A DNA stretch of 20,000 nucleotides from an uncultured virus (IMG/VR IMGVR_UViG_3300025151_004056). Its lineage: Duplodnaviria; Heunggongvirae; Uroviricota; Caudoviricetes. Location of the stretch: the IMG/VR virus record IMGVR_UViG_3300025151_004056. The stretch is one strand, 5' to 3'. Positions 2,561 through 20,000 of the stretch are shown one piece after another (position 1 is the first letter of the stretch; each line of letters begins with the position of its first letter). The position numbers and the translations under genes are program-made. Under the pieces are notes generated by a model. It saw nothing but the letters and a program-made list of their open reading frames with translations. It was not told where the DNA came from and made no database searches.

Positions 2561-2773
2561 TTAGTGGGCTTTTTTATAATCTTGGTAATCTAAGAAGAAT
2601 CCTGTAGCAACTAATATGTTCATTCCTAACGATGCAATGATCATATGTATGTCTTGGTATACATCCATTTTAAGACTAAGATGCAAATGTCCTACTGCCC
2701 AAAATGGAATAGCCAATTGCTGACTAATCCATGACAGAGTATATCTTACAAAAGTAAACTTACTTGATATCAA
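2561..2773 (-). CDS. Small hydrophobic (putative membrane) protein
   Basis: 70-aa ORF filling the gap on the coding strand, with two hydrophobic segments. The TTG start overlaps the upstream gene and is uncertain. Confidence 0.5.
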   Translation of the reverse strand: MISSKFTFVRYTLSWISQQLAIPFWAVGHLHLSLKMDVYQDIHMIIASLGMNILVATGFFLDYQDYKKAH

Positions 2774-3467
2774 GACCTTTTGCCTTAGTTGCTATAATAC
2801 AGTAGTAATGTTCTCTCATTGCGATAGGTTCACCTTCTGGGTCTTCAGGGTTTTGATGATTCAAATCAAACTCTAAGTTGTTGAACTGATCAATTTGAAA
2901 TCCAGTACGTTGTAAGAGTGCGGCTAATTGTGTAGCACCAAAGATACTGTAATGATTTAAGTTAAATTCATGTTTACGATCATTATCAGGAGCAGGTACT
3001 TCAATATAAATCTTTGAACCTTGCTTTAGAATACGATTGTATTCCATTAAACTAAAGATCGGATAAGGTGAATGTTCTAATGCGTGTCGTAAGAAAATAA
3101 AATCTACACTTTCATCATGGTAACCATCTTTTTGTGGTAAGAATGACAAATCATATCCTTTAGTCTTGTGACCTTTTTCTTCACACAGTTTAATATCTCC
3201 AGGAGACAATGTGATACCTAATACGTCTTCAAACCCTCTTTCTTTCATTTCATCTAAGAAATATCCTGGGCCGCATCCTAAATCTAAGATTTTAGAATCT
3301 TTAGGTAGTGCTAGTGGATCAACATATGTTTCAACTACTTGTTTTGTTAGGTCTTTATGAAATGGGCTGTCCCCTTCATCGTAAATGTGAGCAGTATATA
3401 GCCACTCGTTGTAAAATTTTAACTTGACTAAATCAAGTGTGTTATTAATATCATATGGGATTTCCAT
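2760..3467 (-). CDS. Class I SAM-dependent methyltransferase
   Basis: Motif I ILDLGCGPG, plus DFIFLRHALEH and RILKQGSKIYIEVP typical of Methyltransf_11/23-type proteins. Shine-Dalgarno AAGGAG upstream. Confidence 0.88.
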   Translation of the reverse strand: MEIPYDINNTLDLVKLKFYNEWLYTAHIYDEGDSPFHKDLTKQVVETYVDPLALPKDSKILDLGCGPGYFLDEMKERGFEDVLGITLSPGDIKLCEEKGHKTKGYDLSFLPQKDGYHDESVDFIFLRHALEHSPYPIFSLMEYNRILKQGSKIYIEVPAPDNDRKHEFNLNHYSIFGATQLAALLQRTGFQIDQFNNLEFDLNHQNPEDPEGEPIAMREHYYCIIATKAKGLDIK

Positions 3468-5545: not shown

Positions 5546-5551
5546 TATTTA
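5546..5551 (-). promoter_or_regulatory. Putative late promoter core (TAAATA) upstream of the holin
   Basis: Minus strand GATAAATAGTAGTAT shares TAAATAGTAGTAT with the terL promoter. Confidence 0.55.
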
Positions 5552-6865
5552 TCATCGCCACTTATAAATGGAGTCTTGTACATGTTTGCGATTATGGTCT
5601 AGTATAGGTCTCATGTCTTTATAGATGTCTCTTAATTCAGTAATTGTCTTACTTTCGATGTATTTTATAACTTCAAATATCTTATACAAACGTTCTTCAT
5701 GGTTAGTACAGTCATCATATGACTCGTCCCAAAAGTCACTGAAAGTCTTATAGCCTTGTTCATGTAGATACTTTAATGTACCTGGGGGCGCCATAAGAAT
5801 AAAAGGTTTTCGATACCACATTGGTTGATGTACTTTTTCACTGTAGTTTGGAGTAGGTTGTGCAAACCTAGATTCAGTAACAACATCACAAAATATATCT
5901 TTATAATATTTTTCTATAGGGGTAATTTGATCTTCAGAAGGGTCAAAGTGATCATCAACTGTAGTGTTAACTGGATAAGGAGTCTTTTCTATGTCTAGTA
6001 ATTCTTCAAAATTTACATCTACGTTTAAAGGTCCCTCATTATCTATTGTATCCAAACCTTCATATAAACGTGTCTTATATTTCTTAGGACACTTTCTGAT
6101 ATCGAACCAAGGTAAAGTCTGTAGTATCGATATATTAGTTTTAAAAACAAAACTAACAGTTGCATCACTATTGGCAAGAAATGCGGCTATAAGATTTCTA
6201 TGTGGCGTCCATCTCCAATTTAAATTAATAAACTTTTTTGTAAAGTTTTTAGAGGCTATACCCAAGATGTCCTCATTCTCATATGAATCATCATGGACAT
6301 TAACTAACACAGCATTTTTAATAAAAGTGTCTTCGCATGTTACTGTCATCCATTTCTTATAATAAGGAAATATGTTTTCTGAGTTATAGTCGCATGTTTT
6401 TACTTTAACATTTGTAAGGTTATTTCTAGTAATGTAATCACGTATGCAATCTAATTCATCACTACGCATATAGTCTGGATTTTCTTTGCCAGTAAATTCT
6501 GAATAAAATACCAATGTATGCCCCATTCCTGTTTTTAGAGTATTATAGATACACATAGGTTCGTTTAGATAGAATGTTACACCTGTTTCATTTAACTGTT
6601 CTACAATCTCTGGGGTATGATTTATGCTTTCTAATTCTGACATACGACCATTGTACATATATACATATGTTGGCTTGTAATCATTATAGTTTACACTAGG
6701 TAAGATACGTTCTTTTAATTGTTCGTCTTGTGATGCAGGTCTTTCTGCTAAGTCAGGAAAATAAAACCAGTGTAGTTTATCCCAAATCCATAAATCATCT
6801 TTGCCGTCTGTTGAAATATCGACACCTTCCCTTCCCTCTAAGATTTCTTGCGATAAATGTTTCAT
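5552..6865 (-). CDS. Glycosyltransferase-like protein (C-terminus resembles the GT10/GT-B nucleotide-binding region); start revised to ATG 6865 (MKHLSQ...)
   Basis: C-terminal DVVTES...YSEKVHQP...KPFIL...G.LKYL...GYKTF...WDESYD resembles the ExxxxxxYxTEK motif of GT10-like enzymes. The track start at 6928 overlaps the DegT gene; ATG 6865 is in frame and follows TAAATA-4nt. Confidence 0.6.
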   Translation of the reverse strand: MKHLSQEILEGREGVDISTDGKDDLWIWDKLHWFYFPDLAERPASQDEQLKERILPSVNYNDYKPTYVYMYNGRMSELESINHTPEIVEQLNETGVTFYLNEPMCIYNTLKTGMGHTLVFYSEFTGKENPDYMRSDELDCIRDYITRNNLTNVKVKTCDYNSENIFPYYKKWMTVTCEDTFIKNAVLVNVHDDSYENEDILGIASKNFTKKFINLNWRWTPHRNLIAAFLANSDATVSFVFKTNISILQTLPWFDIRKCPKKYKTRLYEGLDTIDNEGPLNVDVNFEELLDIEKTPYPVNTTVDDHFDPSEDQITPIEKYYKDIFCDVVTESRFAQPTPNYSEKVHQPMWYRKPFILMAPPGTLKYLHEQGYKTFSDFWDESYDDCTNHEERLYKIFEVIKYIESKTITELRDIYKDMRPILDHNRKHVQDSIYKWR

Positions 6866-6875: not shown

Positions 6876-7985
6876 TTAGGGCTCGTAGAAGACGCAAATT
6901 TCGTCTGCAACTTTCTCAACCTCTGCATCAGTTAACTCAGGATACATAGGCAAACTTAATAGTGATCGTGTAAGCAGTGTACTAGTAGACATAAGATCAG
7001 GCTTCTCTAAATTTTCTGCAATTGGAAGTTCACTCAATGCTGTCTTATAATGTATTTTTGTTTCTACTTCTTTATGATTCAACCAGGCTTCTAATTGCTG
7101 ACGTTCGGCGCCTGCATTAACTACAAACTTTGAATCAGCATGAGTTTCAAACCCTTCACTTAAACATTTTAATGGTTGGATATGTTTAAATCTGTCTATA
7201 TAGTATTCTCTAATTTGCTTTCTACGTGCTTGCCATTCATCTATATACTTTGTTCTTACCATTAAATGAGAACAATCTAGTTCACTCATTTTAGAGTTTG
7301 TACCAGAATAAAAATGATATGGCTTTCCGTTATCTTTCCATTGACTAGCAAATTCATATAATGCTTGATTGTTTGTAACGATGGCTCCGCCGTTTCCTGA
7401 AGCATTTAAATTTTTAGTAGGATCAAAACTAATTGCCATTGCAGTTCCTATGTTACCGTCTGCGATCAACCAATGTTGTGCTCCGTCTACAATTGCAATG
7501 TTGTTGTTTAATACTGCTACACCATTATCACTTTCAACTGCTACTGTAGGGGCGCCGAATAAACCAACATGACATTCAATCTTTTGTAATTCATCTTCTG
7601 GTTGTGGAAGAATAATACCATTTCTATCAGTGTCTACAAGTTCTACGTTTAATCCAGCACTTAAGAATGCGTTCATTGTTGCAGGATATGTCAGATTAGG
7701 AACTCTGATTGTTCTGTAAACGTCTTTATCATATTCCCATGATGTGTAAGGATCTTGGTCTGGAGACGTATCTCTTTCATAACGTGCAATTATCTCTAAT
7801 GCTTGTGTTCCACTATGACACAGTATGACATAATGTGCCTTTGTTTTTATAGATAACCAATCTGCAAATTTCTTTGAATACTCACCGTCATTAAGACTGC
7901 CACTAGAAAGAACTGAATCGGTTGCATCAAGCAATTCATCTTTAATATTTTTATATTGTCTATCTAATCCAAAATACTTAACCAT
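6876..7985 (-). CDS. DegT/DnrJ/EryC1/StrS family PLP-dependent sugar aminotransferase
   Basis: SGTQAL, VDGAQ, SFDPTKNL (PLP lysine), GNGGAIVT and C-terminal LSLPMYPEL. Confidence 0.93.
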   Translation of the reverse strand: MVKYFGLDRQYKNIKDELLDATDSVLSSGSLNDGEYSKKFADWLSIKTKAHYVILCHSGTQALEIIARYERDTSPDQDPYTSWEYDKDVYRTIRVPNLTYPATMNAFLSAGLNVELVDTDRNGIILPQPEDELQKIECHVGLFGAPTVAVESDNGVAVLNNNIAIVDGAQHWLIADGNIGTAMAISFDPTKNLNASGNGGAIVTNNQALYEFASQWKDNGKPYHFYSGTNSKMSELDCSHLMVRTKYIDEWQARRKQIREYYIDRFKHIQPLKCLSEGFETHADSKFVVNAGAERQQLEAWLNHKEVETKIHYKTALSELPIAENLEKPDLMSTSTLLTRSLLSLPMYPELTDAEVEKVADEICVFYEP

Positions 7986-9195
7986 GTTCTTTTAGCATTG
8001 TATGTAATTCTTCATTACAATCAACTAATGCTTGTCCTCTGTGTTCGTCTAACAAATTATTAAACTTAATATATTCTTGTAACATGTTTATGTCTTTGCT
8101 TTCTTCTTGGCACTTATCTTTTAATGCATTTATTGTATCTTTAAAAATCTGTGATTGCCATTTACAATCATTTAACATCCACATAAATATTTTTGCAAAG
8201 GCTTTTTGTTTAAAGTCTTTAGGTAGATAATCGATATTCAAGTGTTGCGGGTCTTGTAACAATATCGGTCTTATATCAATTAAAGGTTTGTTTTCTTTAA
8301 TGTTGATGTCTTCAAAGTATTTAAACAGATCAACTATCTTGTTTAAATTTCCTATTTGAATAACTGGCGTCGCCCAAAGTTTAACGTTTTGCATTGTAAT
8401 TAGTTTTTGTATGCTTTCATCAATCTGACTGAACTTGCTAGGATATCTCAAATACTCTTGTACCCCTTCGTATCCGTCAATGCTTAATTGTAGTATGACT
8501 GATTTAAAGTTGGGCAAATACTGATAGAATTTTGGATTGGTGTTTGTAAGATTTGTATTAATAATTAATGTAATATCTTTACTTTTGTCTAACTCTATTA
8601 ACTCCTGTAATATTTCAAAGTTCTTTTCGATGACAGTAGGTTCTCCACCTGTCATATAAATTGTATCGATATTATCTATTTGACTTTTAATGTTTGAATC
8701 AAACGTATCTGTTTCCCACCAGTAATTACTTTCTACATCAAACTGCGGATAAAATCTAGTGTATTCTGTATTATTAATTTCTAAGATTTCTTTTTCTATC
8801 TGACTACTATTTGTAGGATTGCAACTTCTACATTTTAGATTACATAGATTACCAAAACGCAAATCAAAAAATTTAATTTTAAGATCACTTTTAGTTGTAG
8901 TTGGAATAATGTCTTTGTATTGTTCGTTGTTGATTAGTCTGCGACTTTGACGACCATACTTTTCATTGTGATAACATACATCGCATCCAGAGATATACTC
9001 TCCGTCTAACATCTTTTGTCTTAAATTAACAAAGTCTTTGCTGTTGTAGATATCATCTATATTATCATAGCCTAAGTTAAACTTAGTACCATCATCTTTT
9101 GTAATATAGTCATGTGAAATACAACAAGGCTTGATTGCACCGTCGGGGTCAACTGTAATGTTTACCCAAGGCAAAACACAAAACGACTCCGTCAT
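7978..9195 (-). CDS. Radical SAM enzyme with an N-terminal SPASM/twitch-type Cys cluster
   Basis: CxxxCxxC motif (CNLKCRSC), GGEP, INTN and LSIDG, plus N-terminal FCVLPW...PCC...GCDVC. Confidence 0.92.
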   Translation of the reverse strand: MTESFCVLPWVNITVDPDGAIKPCCISHDYITKDDGTKFNLGYDNIDDIYNSKDFVNLRQKMLDGEYISGCDVCYHNEKYGRQSRRLINNEQYKDIIPTTTKSDLKIKFFDLRFGNLCNLKCRSCNPTNSSQIEKEILEINNTEYTRFYPQFDVESNYWWETDTFDSNIKSQIDNIDTIYMTGGEPTVIEKNFEILQELIELDKSKDITLIINTNLTNTNPKFYQYLPNFKSVILQLSIDGYEGVQEYLRYPSKFSQIDESIQKLITMQNVKLWATPVIQIGNLNKIVDLFKYFEDINIKENKPLIDIRPILLQDPQHLNIDYLPKDFKQKAFAKIFMWMLNDCKWQSQIFKDTINALKDKCQEESKDINMLQEYIKFNNLLDEHRGQALVDCNEELHTMLKEHG

Positions 9196-10298
9196 TTTTT
9201 CGGCTTTGCTTTTGCTCTAGGTTTTCTTGTTGCCTTTGGTTTTGCTTTTGGTTTTGCTTTTGGTTTAGGCTTTGGTTCTTCTTTTGGCTTAGGATTGTAT
9301 TGCTCCTGCCAGTATGCTGAATTCTGTAGCCAGTTAAAGTATATAACTAAGCCTTCATTTAAATTAGTTACAGGGTTATAATCAAAATCTTTTTGTGCTT
9401 TTTCGATACTTAAAGATCCTCTACTAGGAAAATCTTTGTCTTTTTGTTTGACTTCGATATTTCCTTTTCCTACAATCTGTTTAACCATTGTTGCGGCATC
9501 ATAAAGTGTTACACCTTTTGACTTAGTAAGATTGTATGTTTCATTCTTTGCTTTATCACTTGTAGTTGCTTGAACAATACCTGTAGCAACATCATTAACA
9601 AATGTAAAGTCTAGTTTCTCCATCTTACCATTGACAACAATCTTTTCGTCTGTAATTGCATTGTGAAAGAACTTAGAGATAACTCTGTCACAGACATCTA
9701 AGGGCCCGTAGACAGCACTAGGACGAATGATAGTATGATTTAAGCCGTATTGTCTTGTATAGTCTTGTACAAGCAATTCTCCAGCATACTTCATAATTGC
9801 GTATTGACCTTTCGGTGTCACGTCTTCCCATTCTTCTACTCCATCAGAAAAATCTCCGTACACCATTGATGAACTAATGTAACAAAAACGATCTACTCCT
9901 GTCTTTCTACTCAGTTCTAATAGATTTAACAATCCTTCACTCATTACTTTTGAGCCTGATGTAGGGTCTGAATTAACTACCTTTTGTCTTGGGAAACTTG
10001 CAAGATGAATTACAGCATCAAACTTTTCTTTTTCAAACAGAGTACTTAACTCAGGATTAGCAACATCAATTGTGTAGATGTTTAACTTTACTGATCCTGT
10101 CATTCTGCCTGCAATGCCATAAAATCTTTCTTTCATTACAGCATCTAATTCTTGTGCATCGATTAGACCGTAATCTGTTTTGGTATCTAAAATAGCAACA
10201 TCATGTCCTTCGTTAATAAGTTTAACTACGACATGGGCACCGATAAATCCTAATCCACCGGTAACACAAATGTTTAATTTTTTCTTTTCTGATGCCAT
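9192..10298 (-). CDS. NAD-dependent epimerase/dehydratase (extended SDR) with a Lys/Pro/Ala-rich C-terminal tail
   Basis: TGGLGFIG Rossmann motif, VIHLAS, SSSMVYG, catalytic YxxxK (YAIMK) and RPSAVYGP. Confidence 0.93.
   Translation of the reverse strand: MASEKKKLNICVTGGLGFIGAHVVVKLINEGHDVAILDTKTDYGLIDAQELDAVMKERFYGIAGRMTGSVKLNIYTIDVANPELSTLFEKEKFDAVIHLASFPRQKVVNSDPTSGSKVMSEGLLNLLELSRKTGVDRFCYISSSMVYGDFSDGVEEWEDVTPKGQYAIMKYAGELLVQDYTRQYGLNHTIIRPSAVYGPLDVCDRVISKFFHNAITDEKIVVNGKMEKLDFTFVNDVATGIVQATTSDKAKNETYNLTKSKGVTLYDAATMVKQIVGKGNIEVKQKDKDFPSRGSLSIEKAQKDFDYNPVTNLNEGLVIYFNWLQNSAYWQEQYNPKPKEEPKPKPKAKPKAKPKATRKPRAKAKPKK
9195..9293 (-). repeat. Low-complexity tandem repeat encoding PKPKEEPKPKPKAKPKAKPKATRKPRAKAKPKK
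   Basis: Degenerate 6/12-nt units (tttggttttgct-like on the plus strand) at the 3' end of the epimerase gene. Confidence 0.8.
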
Positions 10299-10613: not shown

Positions 10614-11315
10614 TCACAACCTATCATCATATTGACTAATGCTAGGAATACCCGGGGGAGGGGGTGTAGTACCTAACATGTCATGCATAGGGAATATATC
10701 AGAAATAACTTTTGCTACAGCATGAGCAATTTCAATATGCTCTTTTTGTGTACCATTAGCACCACGTAATTCAATATAGTGTACCCAACTGCGTAAGGTT
10801 CCATTTACATACATTCGACTTATAGTATTTCCTTCTGGTAGTACTGCTCTTGCTTGTTCTTTAGCAATTCCGTTGCTTATAGCCCATCTGTATGCGTCTA
10901 AGGATGCATCGATGACACTACGTTGCTTGTCTTCCCACATTGCTTGTAACTCTACATCATCAGTAACCACACTGTTCTGTCTATTCTTAGGGTCTTGCAG
11001 TCTTGCTTCACGTATTTCAAAGTCTAACTCGTCAGTAGGGTCAGCATAACGTTGACTGAACTCCTGAAAAGAAAATGATCTATGACGTAAAATCTGTCTA
11101 GCAATATCACGTGTAGTTTCAATCTCTAAACATGCTGATACCATTTCAAGTGGTGACCAGTGTTTGTGTTTCATCAAATACTTTACAAGTTTTTCACTTG
11201 TTTCTTTGTTGTTTTGATTATCTGGATTGCTTACTCTTGCACAGTATGCAACTAAATCTAATGCTGACTCATTAAAGTCCGGTGCTTGTGAATGACTAAT
11301 TAGTTTAACTTTCAA
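10614..11315 (-). CDS. thyX: FAD-dependent thymidylate synthase
   Basis: ThyX motif RHRSFSFQEFSQRY, plus HWSPLE and KEQARAVLP. TTG start with Shine-Dalgarno AAGGA. Confidence 0.96.
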   Translation of the reverse strand: MKVKLISHSQAPDFNESALDLVAYCARVSNPDNQNNKETSEKLVKYLMKHKHWSPLEMVSACLEIETTRDIARQILRHRSFSFQEFSQRYADPTDELDFEIREARLQDPKNRQNSVVTDDVELQAMWEDKQRSVIDASLDAYRWAISNGIAKEQARAVLPEGNTISRMYVNGTLRSWVHYIELRGANGTQKEHIEIAHAVAKVISDIFPMHDMLGTTPPPPGIPSISQYDDRL

Positions 11316-13053: not shown

Positions 13054-13346
13054 TACTTTCTATCCTCACTTAAATTATAAACAATCTCTACTTGTTCTAA
13101 TAACTTACTTAGAGCAGGATTATTTTTAGAAACTTCTAGTATATTTCTATACATGTGCCATCTTTCAAAGAATTTCTTTTCTTCCAACATTTCTGGGTTT
13201 TCGTAAACCTTTTTTCTTTGTGACATTTCATGTACACCTAACGGTCTTGCATACACTGTGTTGCCTCCGTCTGGTGATTCATAAATGAACTTATCCTCTG
13301 GGCCTGCATTAGCAGGCCTGTGAGGTTCCAAATGATCTTTGCTCAT
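13053..13346 (-). CDS. Hypothetical phage protein (YESPDGGxTVY motif)
   Basis: 97 aa with a 4-nt overlap with the vWA gene. Confidence 0.75.
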   Translation of the reverse strand: MSKDHLEPHRPANAGPEDKFIYESPDGGNTVYARPLGVHEMSQRKKVYENPEMLEEKKFFERWHMYRNILEVSKNNPALSKLLEQVEIVYNLSEDRK

Positions 13347-14635
13347 GCGGCCTGTTTGTGTTTATGCTCATCATAGATTGCCCATGTGCCGAAAGGGGGA
13401 TTCGGCTCAGGGTCACCATGAATGATCCATGTAGTGTCGCAATAGTTTTCATCGCCCCAACTACCAAACGGGTAACCATCTGTGAATACGATTAGACGAT
13501 TGGGTACACGACCTTCACGTTTCAAATAGTTGAAGATACAATCAAAGTCAGTACCACCGCCACCATAGATTTCGTAGTCAGTGATTTCATCTAAGTTATC
13601 ACTGTCGAATGTCTGTGGATTGTAGACTTCTGTATCGAAACAATGTACATGAATTTTGTAGTTAGTAAACGTCTCCATGATACCTTGAATCTCTGAAAGG
13701 AAAAAGGTTCCTTGCTCAGAACCAATAGATCCTGACATATCTAAGAACACATCAACATCAATCATTTCACCTGGAGTCATACCTGGCATGATTGCATCCT
13801 GATGCCAACCCCTACGAGAAGGCTTAATAAATGAATAGTCGTTGTTCATTGTGCTAGTCAAATTAGACTGAATGATATCGTCCCAGGGCATGACAGGAGC
13901 AGTTAAGTCTTTAACTAGACGTTCAACACCCTTGGGTAATGAACCTGCTTCAGCGCCTTGTGCGGCGTTGATGATTGCTTCTTTCATCTCCTGCTTGAGA
14001 GCATCCTTTTCTTCTTTAGACATTTTGACTGGGCCGGGCTTGTCACCATCTTCGCCGTCGCCATCACCAGCACCTGCTGAGTCACCATCAATATGCTCAT
14101 CAAGTAATTGGTCAAGCAATTGCTCAATATCAATAACTTCTGCATTTTCATACAGAATGTCATAGACTTGCTCTGCTGACATACGGTCATACTTGTAGTC
14201 ATACAAGCAAGGAACAGTAGTGATGAACTCACCAATGTTGTGATTTTTCAAATCTGCGTTGACACAATAGTCATCAGCAATGTTCCATAGTTGAGGATCC
14301 CTAGTACCTCTACGATCCATATGATCATAAACTACGTGGAGTACCTCATGTGCTACAAGAAATTCTACTTCCTTCTTCTTTAGCATCATAATGAAACGTG
14401 CATTGTAGTAAAAATGCTTACCATCAGTTGCGGCAGTTGGACACCATTCATCAGCATTGATGAGTGTCAAACGTGTAGCAAGATTACCAAAAAATGAATG
14501 TCTGAGTAACAGAGCAATACGGGCAGTGATAAGACGATCACGGGCTTGTGCATCTACCTGAGGGTCTGTAGGACCTACTAGATGCGCCAGTTTGCTCTCT
14601 TTGTCGTTGTTAGTTGTTGTAGAATTCTTAGTCAT
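13343..14635 (-). CDS. DUF2201-type protein: N-terminal HExxH metallopeptidase-like domain plus C-terminal vWA domain
   Basis: TAATDG, AHEVLH, WNIADDYCVN; MIDAS DMSGSI, GGGGTDF and VFTDG. Adjacent to the AAA+ ATPase. Confidence 0.9.
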   Translation of the reverse strand: MTKNSTTTNNDKESKLAHLVGPTDPQVDAQARDRLITARIALLLRHSFFGNLATRLTLINADEWCPTAATDGKHFYYNARFIMMLKKKEVEFLVAHEVLHVVYDHMDRRGTRDPQLWNIADDYCVNADLKNHNIGEFITTVPCLYDYKYDRMSAEQVYDILYENAEVIDIEQLLDQLLDEHIDGDSAGAGDGDGEDGDKPGPVKMSKEEKDALKQEMKEAIINAAQGAEAGSLPKGVERLVKDLTAPVMPWDDIIQSNLTSTMNNDYSFIKPSRRGWHQDAIMPGMTPGEMIDVDVFLDMSGSIGSEQGTFFLSEIQGIMETFTNYKIHVHCFDTEVYNPQTFDSDNLDEITDYEIYGGGGTDFDCIFNYLKREGRVPNRLIVFTDGYPFGSWGDENYCDTTWIIHGDPEPNPPFGTWAIYDEHKHKQAA

Positions 14636-14758: not shown

Positions 14759-15856
14759 TTAGTTGCCAGCCTCAACAATGTAGTTACCATAACGTTTATG
14801 GAAGTCATCAAAGTTCTTCAATTGAGAAGGTTCGATTGGTAACTTGTAAGTTTTCAGTGCAACTTTTGCACCCATGACCACTAACTCTGTTTCAAAGTTA
14901 GCCATGATGTAGCCAAAGAAGTTGTCGCACATTTCGTGGAACTTCTTGTTATCGACCTTATCAGTCTCAAGGGCACTCTTAAGTTCATAGCACATTGAGA
15001 TAGTCAAAGAATACATTGCAGAGATTTCTTTGACATCTAAGTCCTTGACTTTACCTGACAAGATATCAGATGGGTTGGGCATTTTACTAGCAATCTTACG
15101 ATGTGCTACAAACTTAGTAGCAAGACCCTCACCAACAGTACCTGCGACTAGATTGTAAAGAGTCTCAGGATCCATATCGTCCTCTTGCAGTAACTGAGAT
15201 ACGAATGTCCATGTACGTGGGGTAGCAAATGCACGTGAAGAAGACTTAGCATCGAAATCATACAAGTCCTGCTTTGCAAATGACAAGTAACCAACTACGT
15301 CCTCATGCACTTGATTTTCAATAGCCCAGTTCTGCCAAGAAGCAAAGTCAGGACGCATTTCTAAGTGAATGAAACGATTAGCAAGGGGCATCGGCATACG
15401 ATATGTAACACCCTTGTCAGAGTCCCTGTTACCTGCGGCAACAATATGAACATTCTTGGGCAGAACATACTTACCAACACGTCCATTAAGAACAAGTTGA
15501 TAACCTGCAGCCTGCACTGCTGGTGGTGCTGAGTTCATTTCATCTAAGAAAAGAACAATACATGGATACTGAGAAGCAAGTTCTTCAGTTGGAAGTTCGA
15601 TTGGGGGAGCCCAATCCATAACTCCTAATTCTTTGTTGAAGAAAGGGATACCTCTGATATCAGTAGGCTCCATCTGCGCCATACGCAGATCAATCATATG
15701 ACCACCTAACTCGTTAGTGATCTCCTCGACAAGTTCAGACTTGCCAACTCCGGGAGGTCCCCACAAGAATGATGGACGATTTGCTTTCATAGCCGCTTTG
15801 ATCGCGGGCTTTGCTTGTTGACTTGTTACAGTCAGATTTTCAGTTAATTGAGACAT
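14759..15856 (-). CDS. MoxR-type AAA+ ATPase
   Basis: Walker A GPPGVGKS, Walker B VLFLDE, sensor I AAGN and arginine finger LANRF. Next to a vWA partner. Confidence 0.92.
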   Translation of the reverse strand: MSQLTENLTVTSQQAKPAIKAAMKANRPSFLWGPPGVGKSELVEEITNELGGHMIDLRMAQMEPTDIRGIPFFNKELGVMDWAPPIELPTEELASQYPCIVLFLDEMNSAPPAVQAAGYQLVLNGRVGKYVLPKNVHIVAAGNRDSDKGVTYRMPMPLANRFIHLEMRPDFASWQNWAIENQVHEDVVGYLSFAKQDLYDFDAKSSSRAFATPRTWTFVSQLLQEDDMDPETLYNLVAGTVGEGLATKFVAHRKIASKMPNPSDILSGKVKDLDVKEISAMYSLTISMCYELKSALETDKVDNKKFHEMCDNFFGYIMANFETELVVMGAKVALKTYKLPIEPSQLKNFDDFHKRYGNYIVEAGN

Positions 15857-16286: not shown

Positions 16287-16871
16287 TTAAGGTTTATCGT
16301 ACCAACGTATATAGATCATTGTTACAGCATTGTTGTCGTTTTGATAGTACTGATGGCCTAGATTCATATTATGGGCAAACAATTTATTATTAGTCAAAGT
16401 TTCTCTTACGCCTCTCTTCCATATATCTGGCCATTCATCTGCGTATGATACTTGAAATTCTGAATTTACGTCAGCATCACTTAAAGTAAAAAATGTAATC
16501 CATTGTTTAGTAGGATCGTCAAAGTTCTCTATAGGATTGTAATCTTTATGCCAACGACCTGAGTCATGCATCGGGTCTATTTGATTGTCTATTAGTACTC
16601 TGTAATTATAAATGACTGGACGTTTTAAGTAAGGCTTTAATTGTAATTGAATTAAATCGATTAGTTCTCCCATAGAGTCAGGAAGCAATCGTTTGACTAT
16701 TGAATTGTCATCATATCGATTATAAAGAGTAGGGTTTGTTTTGTCTCTTAATAGATCGCCTTCTGGATTAATTAAATATCCAGGGTAGTCTACGAGTGGT
16801 TTGTCATCTGATACACGTTGTAAGAGATCAGCATTTAAAAATTGATCAGTAAAGAAATACTCGGTGTTCAA
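16287..16871 (-). CDS. Putative 2OG-Fe(II) oxygenase-like protein
   Basis: HxD motif in GRWHKD, a distal His (NLGHQ) and a beta-strand-rich C-terminal half. The assignment is tentative. Confidence 0.55.
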   Translation of the reverse strand: MNTEYFFTDQFLNADLLQRVSDDKPLVDYPGYLINPEGDLLRDKTNPTLYNRYDDNSIVKRLLPDSMGELIDLIQLQLKPYLKRPVIYNYRVLIDNQIDPMHDSGRWHKDYNPIENFDDPTKQWITFFTLSDADVNSEFQVSYADEWPDIWKRGVRETLTNNKLFAHNMNLGHQYYQNDNNAVTMIYIRWYDKP

Positions 16872-18289
16872 TAGATGCCTTTGCCAAACTGAGTTTTAGG
16901 ATTTTTAGTTTTCTTTTTGCCCGGTCTAACAAGTGGAGGACGACCATCACGTTGAATATTACCTAGTCCCATTGCTTTTGCTTGTTTCTTCATTGTATCT
17001 GGATGTACATCTACTGTCAGAGCATAAGAAAATCTTGGATCATTTCTTTGTGCTTCACTTGGAATGTAACCTGATGCTTCACCGATCATATCAGGTCTTC
17101 TAGCGGGTTGTGATAATTGTTTAATTTCGTAAGGACCTTCGATTCCTCTCTTTTTAAGAAAGTCAACAAGTTTTTCTAGTTTTGCTTTGCTTACATCTTT
17201 GACATTTGGTTTGCCGTTTACATACAAAGCATATTCTACTTGAGGTTCTTCCATCATCTTAGATATATCATTCATATCTACATCGTCTTTAGCACCTCTG
17301 TTTATTCTTTCAACTGCGGCTAAAAAACTAACCATCTTGTCATAATATTCTATATCTTTTGCAAGATTTTTTACTGCTATTTTGTATGCATCGGATTTAT
17401 CTTTGTTGTTTAATTGCATTTCAAACTTAATTGCCGCATCTAAATATTTTGCGACCTCTATGTTTTTCATGTTAAACTGTTTTGCTAACTGCTCTACGCC
17501 ATCTTCGCCTTCTGCAATATTGACTTTGCTATTATAAACACCAATAGATTCTTCAAACGTTCTGCGTAACAGTTCTTCTTCGATAGATAATTGCTCGCCT
17601 CTTAACTTGTTACGTAAATCAAATAGTGCTTGAAAGTATCCTTTGGATCTGATAGCCTTAAATGCTAAATTCTCAGGACCGAACTCTCCTTTCTTATCTA
17701 AGCCTGCTTGTCTGTATCGTTTAATAATAGATAGAACTTGATTGACTTGATCGATATTTTTTGATTTGAGTCCTTTAAGACACAATTCTTCTAATCTTTC
17801 AAACTTATGTTCTGCTGATATTTCATCTAAGTTTGCTCTTTGTTTGGTAGGGAAACGAGTAAACTTATCTTTCATTAGACTGTATTCGCCTAAACTAGTA
17901 TGTGCTTGTGCTGTGTCTTGTACGTATAACTCTACAGGAATACCTCTAACTGTAATGTCATATGTGTCGTTATATAAAGACTTTTTAGCATTGAACAATT
18001 CTTTGTAAACATCTGACTCAGGAAGTTCTGCAAAATCTACAAGTAGATGCAAATCAATATCCGAATGAGGTGTGTATGTAAATGCAACATTACTACCAGT
18101 AATGATTACATCTTCTACAGCAAGATCAGGAATACCCATGAATTCTATAAAGTCATCAGTGATGATTTCTAGTTGTTTTTTGATGTTTGGCTTCAATTTA
18201 TTGTTTTCATCAAACAGCAAAGGATTCAACTCATCATGGAAGTTGATCGCATCTTCGATTTTGAATTTCTCTAGTTCAGTTATGTTCAT
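16868..18289 (-). CDS. Multidomain protein with an N-terminal DNA polymerase beta-superfamily nucleotidyltransferase domain
   Basis: hGS...DxD signature (IITGSNVAFTYTPHSDIDLHL) and a third acidic strand (VELYVQD), followed by further C-terminal modules. Confidence 0.8.
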   Translation of the reverse strand: MNITELEKFKIEDAINFHDELNPLLFDENNKLKPNIKKQLEIITDDFIEFMGIPDLAVEDVIITGSNVAFTYTPHSDIDLHLLVDFAELPESDVYKELFNAKKSLYNDTYDITVRGIPVELYVQDTAQAHTSLGEYSLMKDKFTRFPTKQRANLDEISAEHKFERLEELCLKGLKSKNIDQVNQVLSIIKRYRQAGLDKKGEFGPENLAFKAIRSKGYFQALFDLRNKLRGEQLSIEEELLRRTFEESIGVYNSKVNIAEGEDGVEQLAKQFNMKNIEVAKYLDAAIKFEMQLNNKDKSDAYKIAVKNLAKDIEYYDKMVSFLAAVERINRGAKDDVDMNDISKMMEEPQVEYALYVNGKPNVKDVSKAKLEKLVDFLKKRGIEGPYEIKQLSQPARRPDMIGEASGYIPSEAQRNDPRFSYALTVDVHPDTMKKQAKAMGLGNIQRDGRPPLVRPGKKKTKNPKTQFGKGIY

Positions 18290-18294
18290 ATAAC

Positions 18295-18300
18295 TATTTA
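18295..18300 (-). promoter_or_regulatory. T4-like late promoter core (TAAATA), 5 nt upstream of ATG 18289
   Basis: Minus strand reads GATAAATAGTTAT-ATG. Confidence 0.6.
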
Positions 18301-18311
18301 TCGAAATAGGC

Positions 18312-18333
18312 GAGGGGCAAATAAATGCCCCTC
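18312..18333 (-). terminator. GC-rich hairpin closing the tmRNA transcript
   Basis: GAGGGGCA-TTTATT-TGCCCCTC is a perfect 8-bp stem with only a weak U-tail. Confidence 0.6.
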
Positions 18334-18371
18334 TAGGTGTTCGGTGACGAGGTACCTTAGACCTCGGGGGA

Positions 18372-18413
18372 CTAGGCCGCTAGGGCGTAGTCTTCCATTG
18401 TATAATCGTTGCC
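18372..18413 (-). other. tmRNA proteolysis tag reading frame, (A)GNDYTMEDYALAA*
   Basis: GGC AAC GAT TAT ACA ATG GAA GAC TAC GCC CTA GCG GCC TAG after an A/T-rich resume context (ATAATT). The stop is enclosed in a helix-5-like stem, GACTA-c-GCC/GGC-c-TAGTC. Confidence 0.88.
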
Positions 18414-18578
18414 AATTATAATTTTGCTTGATTTACGGTCATCGCCTACCGTGTTGTCTGTTCAGTTACTGAGTCACCCTGTCGAATCCCTTACACCCCC
18501 TCTGCTGTTTATTGGTGGAGGTGGCCGGAGTCGAACCGGCGTCCAAAGCGCCTTTTACTTCACTTCATACAACAATAA

Positions 18579-18947
18579 TTAATCAAGTAGTTCTTTAATA
18601 ACAAGAACTTTGATTACGGTATCTGCTACTTCGTCTATATCATCTTTCAGATATTTGACTTCAGTATGTACCTTATGTCTAGCATAACCTGTGTAGTAAG
18701 GAACTGCATTACTACCCATGTGTACCATAGTATTACCACGTCTTTGATGTGTATGCATACTATAGTGACGAGGATATTTTACAATCCTACCGTCAATGAT
18801 ACGAGTTGCACCCGTATATGCTGACTGTTTCTCACGCATGAGACGTTGGTCAGATTTTTCTGCTTCTACTGGACATGCAACCATAATTGCTAAAAACCCT
18901 ACAATTAATGTTGTGCCCAACTGTCTGCCTGTTATCTTCATACCCAT
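18579..18947 (-). CDS. Hypothetical protein with an N-terminal signal peptide or membrane anchor
   Basis: 122 aa; basic N-terminus plus hydrophobic LGTTLIVGFLAIMVAC; Shine-Dalgarno-like AAGGA; TATAAT/TAAATA upstream at 18966-18976. Confidence 0.7.
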   Translation of the reverse strand: MGMKITGRQLGTTLIVGFLAIMVACPVEAEKSDQRLMREKQSAYTGATRIIDGRIVKYPRHYSMHTHQRRGNTMVHMGSNAVPYYTGYARHKVHTEVKYLKDDIDEVADTVIKVLVIKELLD

Positions 18948-19023
18948 ATCCTTTTGCTGAGAATGTATTTATTATAACACAATTAGACTGTAGGCATATA
19001 CTTTTGGGTAAATCATTTTTAAC

Positions 19024-19029
19024 TAAATA
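19024..19029 (+). promoter_or_regulatory. T4-like late promoter core (TAAATA), 5 nt upstream of ATG 19035
   Basis: Plus strand reads CTAAATACATAC-ATG. Confidence 0.6.
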
Positions 19030-19034
19030 CATAC

Positions 19035-20000
19035 ATGCGTTATTATGAATTCATAGTCGAGTACCGAACCGATATCACTAAGAATCGTTTTCAGAACGGT
19101 ATCCTAGAAAAACTGCGGTTCGGTGAATATCTACGATTACAGCCATACTCAGATAAAAATTATATCTCAGATGGTCAACCAAGTGACTATCAAAAAATGG
19201 CATTTAATATCATGGGTCTTAAACATCAATACCCAAAACAACTATGGACACTATTAACACAAGAAATATATGACAAACATAAAGACGATATCGTTAACAT
19301 GATTATATCGTGTATGGAGCAAATTGATCCTACACAAAACAAACAATATGTTCCTTATCTCACGCAATGGTTTATTAATGCAGATGAAATAGGACGAGAT
19401 GCATTCCCTAATTGGGAAGATGCTACATCAACTCTTAAAGAATCATTAATAATGTATTACAAATTAAGAGAACGTATCCCAGAAAAATACAGAGACATTG
19501 GCCAATATAAAAGTGTTGGAGACTTTATGAATGGCGTACAAGCCCTTCGATCACAATATGGTAAACAAGAACAACTAGATAAAGGCGAAAGTGAAATAGT
19601 CTACAACAGCAAATATGCAACAATCTATTGGCCTAAAGATGAGCAAGGTTCTTGTTATTTAGGACAAGGAACACAGTGGTGTACAGCCTCAACTAGATCC
19701 GCTAACTATTTTGACTCATATAACAAAGACGGACCTTTAGTTATTGTTAACATGAAAGAAAAGATAAGAGTCAACGATGGTTGGATAATTGACGATGACG
19801 GCGGAGAACATGAAGACCCATATGGCGAAAAGTATGAGAACAAAATTCAGGCTCATATGGAAGTTGATCCTGATGACAAAGGCGAGTTGTTATGGCAATG
19901 GGATAGCATTGCAGACACACAAGATGAAGAAGTAGATTTTACAACTTTATATGATGATAATCCAAACTTTAAAGCAATGTGGGATAGTCCAGAATTTCAA
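19035..20000 (+). CDS. Large-phage hypothetical protein (GxGTxWCT motif), truncated at the window end
   Basis: Not in the ORF track. Open for 322 codons: MRYYEFIVEYRTDITK...IDPTQNKQYVPYL...SCYLGQGTQWCTASTRSANYFDSYNKDGPL... Confidence 0.85.
   Translation, partial: MRYYEFIVEYRTDITKNRFQNGILEKLRFGEYLRLQPYSDKNYISDGQPSDYQKMAFNIMGLKHQYPKQLWTLLTQEIYDKHKDDIVNMIISCMEQIDPTQNKQYVPYLTQWFINADEIGRDAFPNWEDATSTLKESLIMYYKLRERIPEKYRDIGQYKSVGDFMNGVQALRSQYGKQEQLDKGESEIVYNSKYATIYWPKDEQGSCYLGQGTQWCTASTRSANYFDSYNKDGPLVIVNMKEKIRVNDGWIIDDDGGEHEDPYGEKYENKIQAHMEVDPDDKGELLWQWDSIADTQDEEVDFTTLYDDNPNFKAMWDSPEFQ

Follow-up and report, generated by a model that had tools for sequence, protein, structure and literature searches.

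The question raised by a 20,000-nucleotide stretch of DNA from an uncultured virus of the class Caudoviricetes (IMG/VR record IMGVR_UViG_3300025151_004056; the whole stretch is called the window below) is whether a segment of about 264 nt on its minus strand, at positions 18312-18575, constitutes a whole transfer-messenger RNA (tmRNA) gene in which the 3' part is encoded ahead of the 5' part, and what such a gene may do in a phage. A sequence-only reading had proposed that the phage encodes a compact permuted tmRNA with an intact tag, and this proposal was upheld by ARAGORN and by two Rfam models that matched over their full length. Very probably, an uncultured marine jumbo myovirus of about 330 kb carries in this segment an intact gene for a two-piece tmRNA that is circularly permuted and structurally of the betaproteobacterial type.

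The searches that the sequence-only reading had suggested as checks agree in this identification. ARAGORN called exactly one gene in the 20 kb of the window, a permuted tmRNA with the expected tag GNDYTMEDYALAA, and no tRNA. With Infernal, both permuted models exceeded their curated cut-offs: tmRNA_permuted (RF04321) reached 131.3 bits (cut-off 47, E = 6.1e-26) at 18372-18574, covering model positions 1-213 of 213, and beta_tmRNA (RF01850) reached 119.5 bits (cut-off 84, E = 2.7e-36) at 18309-18617, covering positions 1-331 of 331. RF01850 was retained as the best among the overlapping models of the clan. Since the gene resides in a phage and not in a betaproteobacterial chromosome, we class it by structural type and not as a betaproteobacterial gene.

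The permuted order is visible on the minus strand, where the CCA end at 18513 precedes the 5' G at 18500 with 12 nt between them. Read on this strand, all element coordinates given earlier were correct (Table 1). The 12-nt intervening segment and the seven out of seven acceptor pairs with G.U at position 3 were borne out by the sequence, and the two helices joining the pieces, the stem of pseudoknot 1 (PK1) and the closing hairpin were present where they had been placed and were supported by an alignment of relatives. The closing hairpin is likely the 3' end or the terminator of the coding piece.

Table 1. Elements of the permuted tmRNA gene and the two open reading frames (ORFs) that adjoin it, in window coordinates
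Feature	Positions	Strand	Basis and remarks
Acceptor piece	18513-18575	minus	Sequence; 5' end provisional; contains helix arms, T-arm, acceptor 3' strand, discriminator and CCA
Coding piece	18312-18500	minus	Contains acceptor 5' strand, D-loop analogue, helix arms, PK1, tag frame, 3' hairpin and closing hairpin
T-arm GCCGG/TTCGACT/CCGGC	18540-18524	minus	Sequence
Acceptor 3' strand CACCTCC	18523-18517	minus	Sequence
Discriminator A	18516	minus	Sequence
Encoded CCA	18515-18513	minus	Sequence
Intervening segment ATAAACAGCAGA, 12 nt	18512-18501	minus	Sequence; presumably removed
Acceptor 5' strand GGGGGTG	18500-18494	minus	7/7 pairs, G.U at position 3
Helix arms CGCTTTG / CAGGGTG	18550-18544 / 18481-18475	minus	Beside T-arm, joins pieces
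Outer helix arms TGTTGT / ACAACA	18574-18569 / 18457-18452	minus	Joins pieces
PK1 stem ACGGT/ACCGT with invariant loop block AGGCGATGA	18452-18448 with 18439-18435	minus	Sequence and alignment
Tag frame, resume codon GGC (Gly), 13 codons, stop TAG, encodes GNDYTMEDYALAA	18413-18372	minus	ARAGORN
3' hairpin CGAGGT/ACCTCG, first stem (S1) of the 3' pseudoknot of the family	18366-18361 with 18353-18348	minus	Alignment
Proposed second pseudoknot strand CTAAGGT / ACCTAG, flanking conserved single-stranded motif TCACCGAAC	18360-18354 / 18338-18333	minus	
Closing hairpin GAGGGGCA-TTTATT-TGCCCCTC, 8 bp	18333-18312	minus	Sequence and alignment
Upstream ORF, 122 aa, signal-peptide-like N-terminus, no family	18579-18947	minus	Family searches
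Downstream ORF, 473 aa, possibly a Pol-beta-type nucleotidyltransferase	16868-18289	minus	Family matches below threshold

The sequence-only reading would have been refuted by stems that are not conserved in related phages, and the stems were found to pair and covary. In a structural alignment of the window and six viral relatives (seven sequences, the relatives being 70-96% identical), the structure as named in Table 1 was scored as 48 pairs in eight helices, corresponding to 333 pair cells. Standard pairs occupied 88.0% of these cells, compared to 44-51% when the partners were slid by 1-3 columns, and 13 of the 48 pairs had changed on both sides, compared to 2-7 after sliding; none of 500 shuffles reached the observed values. 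Since covariation, slide controls and shuffles agree, the stems are real, far beyond chance. Without constraints, RNAalifold found the acceptor stem and the T-arm again, together with three joining helices; 18 of 66 pairs had compensatory changes, and relative to the named structure two short intermediate helices between the pieces were added. Pairing reached 94-100% of the cells in the five helices that form the tRNA-like domain, join the pieces or belong to PK1. Among them, the outer helix reached 94.3% and the helix adjacent to the T-arm 95.9%, with four pairs changed on both sides, while the T-arm itself was fully paired, with one compensatory pair (CG to GC in three of the seven sequences). 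All five positions of the PK1 stem were paired in every sequence and two of these pairs had changed on both sides, as had four of the seven counted pairs of the closing hairpin. The G.U at acceptor position 3 was present in all seven sequences; a G3.U70 pair is the determinant recognized by alanyl-tRNA synthetase. In the 3' domain, the layout was common to 79 unique phage and bacterial sequences and runs from the first stem through a variable arm of the second stem to the return of the first stem, the single-stranded motif and the return of the second stem. The 3' hairpin of the window, paired in 81% of its cells, is homologous to the GGGG/CCTYG stem found across these 79 sequences.

One further complementarity was observed in this region. 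The PK1 loop contains AGGCGA (18442-18447, minus strand), which is perfectly complementary to TCGCCT (18308-18313, minus strand), a segment beginning in the last 2 nt of the 3' arm of the closing hairpin. RNAalifold paired four of the positions, and these were kept in five of the seven sequences; the complementarity could be due to chance, to an alternative fold or to the adjoining conserved motif.

The tag frame from GGC to TAG was found intact by ARAGORN, and in the alignment with the Rfam models it fell into their resume and tag region. In the relatives the tag reads DNNYEMEDYALAA; two synonymous changes (GAC/GAT and CTA/TTA) fall within its last eight residues, MEDYALAA, yet these residues do not vary among five clade members, a pattern compatible with selection on the peptide. 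The ALAA at its end is similar to the signal by which the E. coli tag is directed to degradation by ClpXP.

The genomic surroundings of the gene are those of a large phage. Among the 27 ORFs of the window are genes for the large terminase, a virion protein, a baseplate-connector-like protein, a holin and ThyX, and the G+C content stays at 30-42% throughout. Compared with the terminases of cultured jumbo phages of 287-490 kb (Phosso, PA5oct, Atu_ph07, a Vibrio phage and the Rak2/GAP32 group), that of the window shows 42-49% identity. Related viral fragments measure 16-57 kb and were rated 4-13% complete; a genome of about 330 kb is likely for the phage of the window because close homologues of a neighboring gene sit on contigs of 331-333 kb. 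An independent viral record of 57 kb shows the same arrangement: its terminase (98% identical) and its tmRNA (95.7% identical) are approximately 17 kb apart. The stretch was found in 20 run rows from 14 studies, two of these rows possibly being the window's own source, and the organism labels of these runs were marine, estuary, aquatic, seawater and salt marsh. A near-identity search with the whole window against cultured phages gave no match. The tmRNA is packed between ORFs of the same strand, with the stop codon of the upstream ORF at 18579 and the start codon of the next one at 18289.

To place the gene among its relatives, viral loci were sampled by one narrow junction pattern that allowed spacers of 3-33 nt, and 74 permuted tmRNA loci were obtained from viral contigs. 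ARAGORN called a permuted tmRNA in 71 of them, the exceptions being L043, L064 and a truncated locus, L068. All of the 40 loci sent to Rfam, namely 38 of the 74 and two from cultured phages (L075 and L076), matched RF04321; 29 also passed beta_tmRNA and four alpha_tmRNA, while seven matched the general model only. Spacers in the viral loci ranged from 4 to 33 nt, so that the 12 nt of the window are unexceptional. The same 12-nt spacer occurs unchanged in L017, L042 and L063, whereas L039, with 78% identity and a tag of the same family, has 28 nt. A 4-nt spacer was seen in eight loci (L001, L008, L016, L024, L028, L043, L044 and L064); two of these, L043 and L064, were missed by ARAGORN, and L043 scored 101 bits with Rfam. 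Across five clade members the tmRNA is kept at 78-96% identity. In a separate viral locus (L058, 84-157), a tRNA with a CUA anticodon, called tRNA-Pyl by ARAGORN, adjoins a permuted tmRNA whose tag, with 28 residues, is unusually long; this tRNA may be an amber suppressor and hint at stop-codon recoding in that phage.

Among the cultured phages searched there was no full-length match, and 17 records matched over 65-67 nt only, in the part comprising T-arm and acceptor. Thirteen of the 17 lack a tmRNA annotation: ten have no feature at this place, two have 'tRNA-OTHER', and Xanthomonas phage JGB6 has an antisense coding sequence for a 'hypothetical protein' (the tmRNA gene of this phage is L076, 1404-1568). 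In Stenotrophomonas phage Marzo, the matching part lies at the start of an annotated tmRNA. The genes of Marzo and JGB6 are permuted and of the beta type according to ARAGORN and Rfam (94.6 and 94.7 bits, respectively). An antisense ORF of 57 aa also crosses the tmRNA of the window (18409-18582, plus strand); it is almost certainly not a gene, and gene callers could pick it up, as in JGB6.

The bacterial relatives are few. A PK1-loop block is common to the window, 30 of the 74 viral loci and 28 bacterial loci, which by record title comprise 13 from Advenella, seven from Pelistega, one from Brackiella, one Alcaligenaceae metagenome-assembled genome (MAG), four 'Proteobacteria' MAGs and two MAG contigs labeled Crocinitomicaceae and Alteromonadales (L079 and L092). 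ARAGORN called a permuted tmRNA in 26 of these 28 loci, with the tags ANDESYALAA in 23 of them, ANDEKFALAA in L086, ANSEYALAA in L079 and ANDSTYALAA in L092. Similarity of the window to the bacterial copies is local, extending over 30-96 nt. Of 401 Burkholderiales genomes, 115 gave short matches of 30-46 nt, with one match of 149 nt at 66% identity, and none gave a full-length match; beta_tmRNA exceeded its cut-off in four of 151 Burkholderiales, and E. coli as control gave no beta_tmRNA match above cut-off. Both Burkholderiales tallies include one unpublished genome (G036), on which no claim rests. None of five carrier bacteria had a standard tmRNA above cut-off, indicating that the permuted gene is their sole ssrA.

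In comparison with these bacterial genes of the RF01850 type, which are the only ssrA of Advenella, Pelistega and Brackiella, the gene of the window agrees in gene order, outer helix and PK1 stem, the loop block GTAGGCGATGAC..T.AATCAAGCAA is identical, and the 3' layout and the single-stranded motif are alike. It differs in being phage-borne, in its tag GNDYTMEDYALAA with a glycine resume codon, in lacking a promoter of its own and a U-run terminator, and in the decay of the second pseudoknot strand. The sequence-only reading had left it open whether the gene was captured from a host with a permuted gene or arose by an independent permutation. The full-length match to RF01850 with its 331 positions, the beta-type 3' layout and the 26-nt PK1-loop block common to the window and Alcaligenaceae tmRNAs point to an existing permuted lineage and make an independent permutation unlikely. 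A recent capture from a host is not favored either, as the bacteria sampled contained no near copy.

A quick maximum-likelihood tree was calculated from 86 unique permuted tmRNAs, of which 56 were viral, 28 bacterial and two uncertain MAG contigs. The window falls into an all-viral clade, with SH-like approximate likelihood ratio test (SH-aLRT) values of 97, 98, 96, 99 and 95 at five successive nodes, and the bacterial sequences are grouped in two clades that lie nested among those of viruses. Built from short sequences in pattern-selected samples, with a midpoint root and many long branches, the tree shows that the nearest relatives of the window among the sequences compared are viral and shows no direction of transfer. 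L079 and L092 group with viral sequences, L092 as sister to the viral L061 with a support of 97, and both are probably phage contigs binned with bacteria. The clue to the host that had been seen in the tmRNA type did not hold. Stenotrophomonas, Xanthomonas and Citrobacter have a one-piece tmRNA, and since the type found in the window occurs also in phages of such hosts, as in Marzo and JGB6, it does not indicate the host; the all-viral clade and the result from the 401 Burkholderiales genomes point in the same direction. Viral copies were more diverse than the bacterial ones sampled. It is conceivable, although we consider it rather unlikely, that the 'betaproteobacterial' two-piece tmRNA is mainly a phage-borne lineage that moves among unrelated large phages regardless of the tmRNA form of their hosts, and that the few bacterial groups with this type may have acquired it from phages, not the reverse.

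The high novelty that the sequence-only reading had assigned to the gene, with the reservation that a match to an already catalogued phage family would lower it, could not be maintained because two-piece tmRNAs of phages, including jumbo phages, have been published and tabulated (PMC9004378). A two-piece tmRNA was described in the OM43 phage Melnitz, and a survey reported in the same source found tmRNAs in 402 of 18,146 phage genomes, which gave 133 unique structures; 53 of these were two-piece according to ARAGORN, 50 of them from marine or aquatic phages (PMC9004378). The permuted genes tabulated there include those of Mendera, Moby, YB07, Caulobacter phages of 308-322 kb and S-SSM7 (233 kb), as well as the Citrobacter phages Mordin and Moogle, a Bordetella phage, a Cellulophaga phage, phages of Pseudomonas, crAss-like phages and XacN1 with 385 kb (PMC9004378). 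Huge phages were reported to carry both tmRNAs and SmpB (PMC7162821), and the tmRNA database is described as listing 79 bacteriophage sequences, with RF04321 merging three older permuted models (PMC11915505). The gene of the window is thus one more member of a published and common class.

Within this class, the closest parallels are Melnitz, the pelagimyophages, Mendera, Moby, Marzo, XacN1 and the Caulobacter phiCbK-like phages, which like the phage of the window are lytic, often large or jumbo and often aquatic, with a permuted gene and no smpB (PMC9004378). The gene of Melnitz is alphaproteobacterial-like and linked to a glutamine riboswitch (PMC9004378), whereas Rfam detected no riboswitch in the window; the gene of Marzo lies in a tRNA cluster, whereas the window has no tRNA. 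The one-piece tmRNAs of the mycobacteriophage Bxz1 group and Bacillus phage G as well as the RNA of DS6A, which consists of the tRNA-like domain only, are likewise described as phage ssrA without smpB (PMC4131195), but they have the standard order or no tag frame, in contrast to the permuted order and full tag frame of the window. The translation sets of huge phages include tmRNA and SmpB (PMC7162821); the jumbo-class phage of the window shares the tmRNA, and SmpB was not found in the 11 records searched.

If the RNA acts as its structure predicts, it would be transcribed together with the upstream ORF. Permuted transcripts are described as being cut by tRNA-processing enzymes into two base-paired pieces (PMC11915505). 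In the present case, host RNase P would cut between 18501 and 18500, thereby generating the 5' G of the coding piece and separating the two pieces, and host 3' exonucleases would remove the 12-nt trailer as far as the encoded CCA at 18513. This would yield pieces of approximately 62 and 189 nt, held together by three helices. Host alanyl-tRNA synthetase would charge the RNA via G3.U70, and with host SmpB it would reach ribosomes that have stalled on broken mRNAs, where translation would resume at GGC and append (A)GNDYTMEDYALAA, the ALAA end of which would serve as the usual ClpXP-type degradation signal. For the phage, the benefit may be that ribosomes are kept recycling while host and phage mRNAs are cut during infection. 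This last step is the least secure one, and an adaptive benefit in infection is a conjecture. The further ideas of the sequence-only reading, that the RNA could counter host ribonuclease defenses or redirect tagged proteins, are speculative.

Several observations weigh against a functional tmRNA of this kind. Its processing, alanylation and SmpB binding are predictions. The resume codon GGC encodes glycine, and the GAC of the relatives encodes aspartate, in place of the common alanine (GCN). In addition, the 3' domain is reduced. The sequence-only reading had suggested a second hairpin or pseudoknot, of which the hairpin, that is the first stem, was substantiated, whereas the pseudoknot strand was not: as judged against the RF01850 type, the window has the first stem, the single-stranded motif and the terminal hairpin, while the second stem pairs at chance level. 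CTAAGGT/ACCTAG was paired in 61.5% of cells among near relatives. A contiguous second-stem helix of at least 6 bp was present in 31 of 51 distinct sequences (61%) versus 13.9% in cross-sequence controls, whereas the window and its four closest relatives keep only 3-4 contiguous pairs, which equals the control mean. This contiguous-helix test replaced a duplex-energy test, in which 13 of 69 sequences fell under the 5th percentile of controls and which was noisy because the G-rich flanks pair with anything. Since pairing in the clade of the window is at chance while the family shows a clear helix, this clade has retained a simple hairpin from a 3' pseudoknot that characterizes the family, the second strand having decayed.

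The transcription signals are a further point on this side. A promoter scan of 17900-19300 detected no promoter-like site ahead of the tmRNA; promoter and terminator hits were fewer than in shuffled sequences (4 versus a mean of 6.3), and the only nearby hit on the minus strand lay inside the tmRNA. No U-run follows the closing hairpin, which was not called by the terminator scan. Six metatranscriptome runs contain part of the stretch, and four of them, from three studies, were analyzed; all four consist of contigs. In each of two studies, a single contig (18361-18935 and 18361-18942, respectively) reaches from the upstream ORF across acceptor piece and spacer over most of the coding piece; the third study yielded contigs at 18488-18893 and 18327-18492. 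The joined form of the tmRNA is present in the RNA libraries, and this fits co-transcription with the upstream ORF. Because the contigs are unbroken across both and no promoter-like site lies between them, the upstream ORF is probably co-transcribed with the tmRNA. What the contigs display is the unprocessed, joined form, in a type of data that cannot resolve ends, strand or level and may contain carried-over DNA. Positions 18272-18305 had no contig cover in the four runs and contigs of the downstream gene ended at 18208-18268, a gap that is uninformative.

A short motif, GATAAATA (extended form GATAAATARTWRTAT), occurs three times on the minus strand (968-975, 5546-5553 and 18295-18302), which is the coding strand at all three sites, 6-27 nt before the starts of the virion protein, the holin and the gene following the tmRNA. 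The last of these sites is invariant in L042, L063, L017 and L039. The motif resembles the late-promoter consensus of T4, and this consensus itself had no site in the window. As a repeated promoter, GATAAATA was rejected since three sites are not above chance (51 of 200 shuffles reached three).

The last point concerns SmpB. As had been noted from the sequence, the window has no smpB, and neither smpB nor a related family was found among its 27 ORFs. The Pfam SmpB model gave no match in 11 viral records, which comprised the nearest record, G001, from which this region is missing, four of the clade of the window, the complete Marzo genome and five large records of tmRNA-bearing phages, two of them rated 94% (G412) and 100% (G414) complete; as positive control, 10 of 14 control genomes matched. 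For the phage of the window itself, the records amount to only 4-13% of the genome. Because no smpB was found, the phage appears to rely on the SmpB of its host, whichever bacterium this may be, though smpB could lie elsewhere in the genome.

Some of these points would also suit an RNA that acts as decoy or inhibitor by binding SmpB or ribosomes of the host and thereby damps or redirects trans-translation, as proposed for the RNA of DS6A: no phage smpB was found, the resume codon does not encode alanine and the 3' pseudoknot is reduced, and a DS6A-like molecule was reported to inhibit tmRNA strongly (PMC4131195, PMC11915505). Unlike in DS6A, however, the whole mRNA-like part is present, with a frame of 13 codons, a stop and an ALAA end kept through synonymous changes, and PK1 and the context of the resume codon fit the family models, so that we give this explanation little credence. 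An equally small probability is assigned to a neutral passenger that was picked up from a bacterium or another phage and is heading to decay. The lost second pseudoknot strand would be expected from such a passenger, and so would the variable neighborhood, as the adjoining genes are common only to L042, L063 and L017. The 78-96% identity in five clade members with compensatory changes in the stems and synonymous ones in the tag argues for maintenance instead, as does the finding that conservation of the tmRNA equals or exceeds that of the flanking proteins (in L063, 93.9% identity of the tmRNA compared to 76% of the upstream ORF), and the bacteria sampled contained no close donor.

Two further explanations would deny the gene its place in the phage, and both were rejected. 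Since ssrA often serves as an integration site and fragments of it are reported from prophages (PMC9004378, PMC11915505), the segment might be the attachment-site remnant of an element that integrates into a host ssrA. It is a complete gene and not a 3' fragment, though, no integrase family was found among the 27 ORFs of the window, the terminase is that of a jumbo myovirus and the bacteria sampled contained no matching ssrA; moreover, the tmRNA lies within a phage genome with phage ORFs on both sides, not at a prophage-host junction, and this arrangement is repeated in independent viral records. We therefore regard a remnant as very improbable. The origin of the window from a metagenome brings up an assembly chimera or host contamination with a bacterial tmRNA, which is the least probable of all the explanations considered. 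The same tmRNA with its flanks occurs in the separate viral records L042, L063 and L017, the stretch recurs across 14 studies, and the tmRNA sits tightly between phage ORFs of the same strand. A chimera was ruled out by the independent 57 kb record, in which terminase and tmRNA have the same spacing. An intact phage tmRNA gene is the reading that accounts best for the conserved stems and the conserved tag peptide.

Of the two genes adjoining this tmRNA gene, the downstream ORF is found next to it only in L042, L063 and L017, the closest relatives, and because of this limited adjacency it is not regarded as part of a conserved module. Its product belongs to a large uncharacterized viral family (2294 matches with E ≤ 1e-5 among 8000 scored) with invariant GS...DID columns (G65, S66, D77 and D79), a motif that matches the signature of Pol-beta nucleotidyltransferases. 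Residues 27-105 gave three matches to nucleotidyltransferase folds, all under the cut-offs, and atlas matches stayed below 0.9. Some relatives of the protein carry a DUF5661 and an IF2_N domain. Sequence and profile searches of the PDB yielded only a chance-level match to DpnI, and the AlphaFold model was poor, with a mean predicted local distance difference test score (pLDDT) of 52.6 and a core below 50.

Farther away, the window contains a set of genes for sugar modification on the minus strand (6876-10298 and 2760-3467), which consists of a DegT-type aminotransferase, a radical SAM/SPASM enzyme, an NAD-dependent epimerase/dehydratase and a separate S-adenosylmethionine-dependent methyltransferase. 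ThyX is encoded at 10614-11315. A MoxR-type AAA ATPase adjoins a DUF2201 protein that is metallopeptidase-like and VWA-like (13343-14635 and 14759-15856, minus strand); PHROGs labels the DUF2201 protein as 'HNH endonuclease', a label without support from Pfam.

By itself, the finding is of minor importance, being a further phage tmRNA in a class that has been published. It illustrates that the tmRNA type of a phage is an unsafe predictor of its host. It also exposes an annotation gap, since 13 of the 17 matching cultured-phage records carry no tmRNA annotation and the 79 phage sequences attributed to the tmRNA database (PMC11915505) compare with 74 loci retrieved by a single junction pattern. 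For the biology of the RNA itself, the reduced beta variant described here, with its 12-nt spacer, its glycine or aspartate resume codon and the loss of one pseudoknot strand, helps to define what a tmRNA can dispense with.

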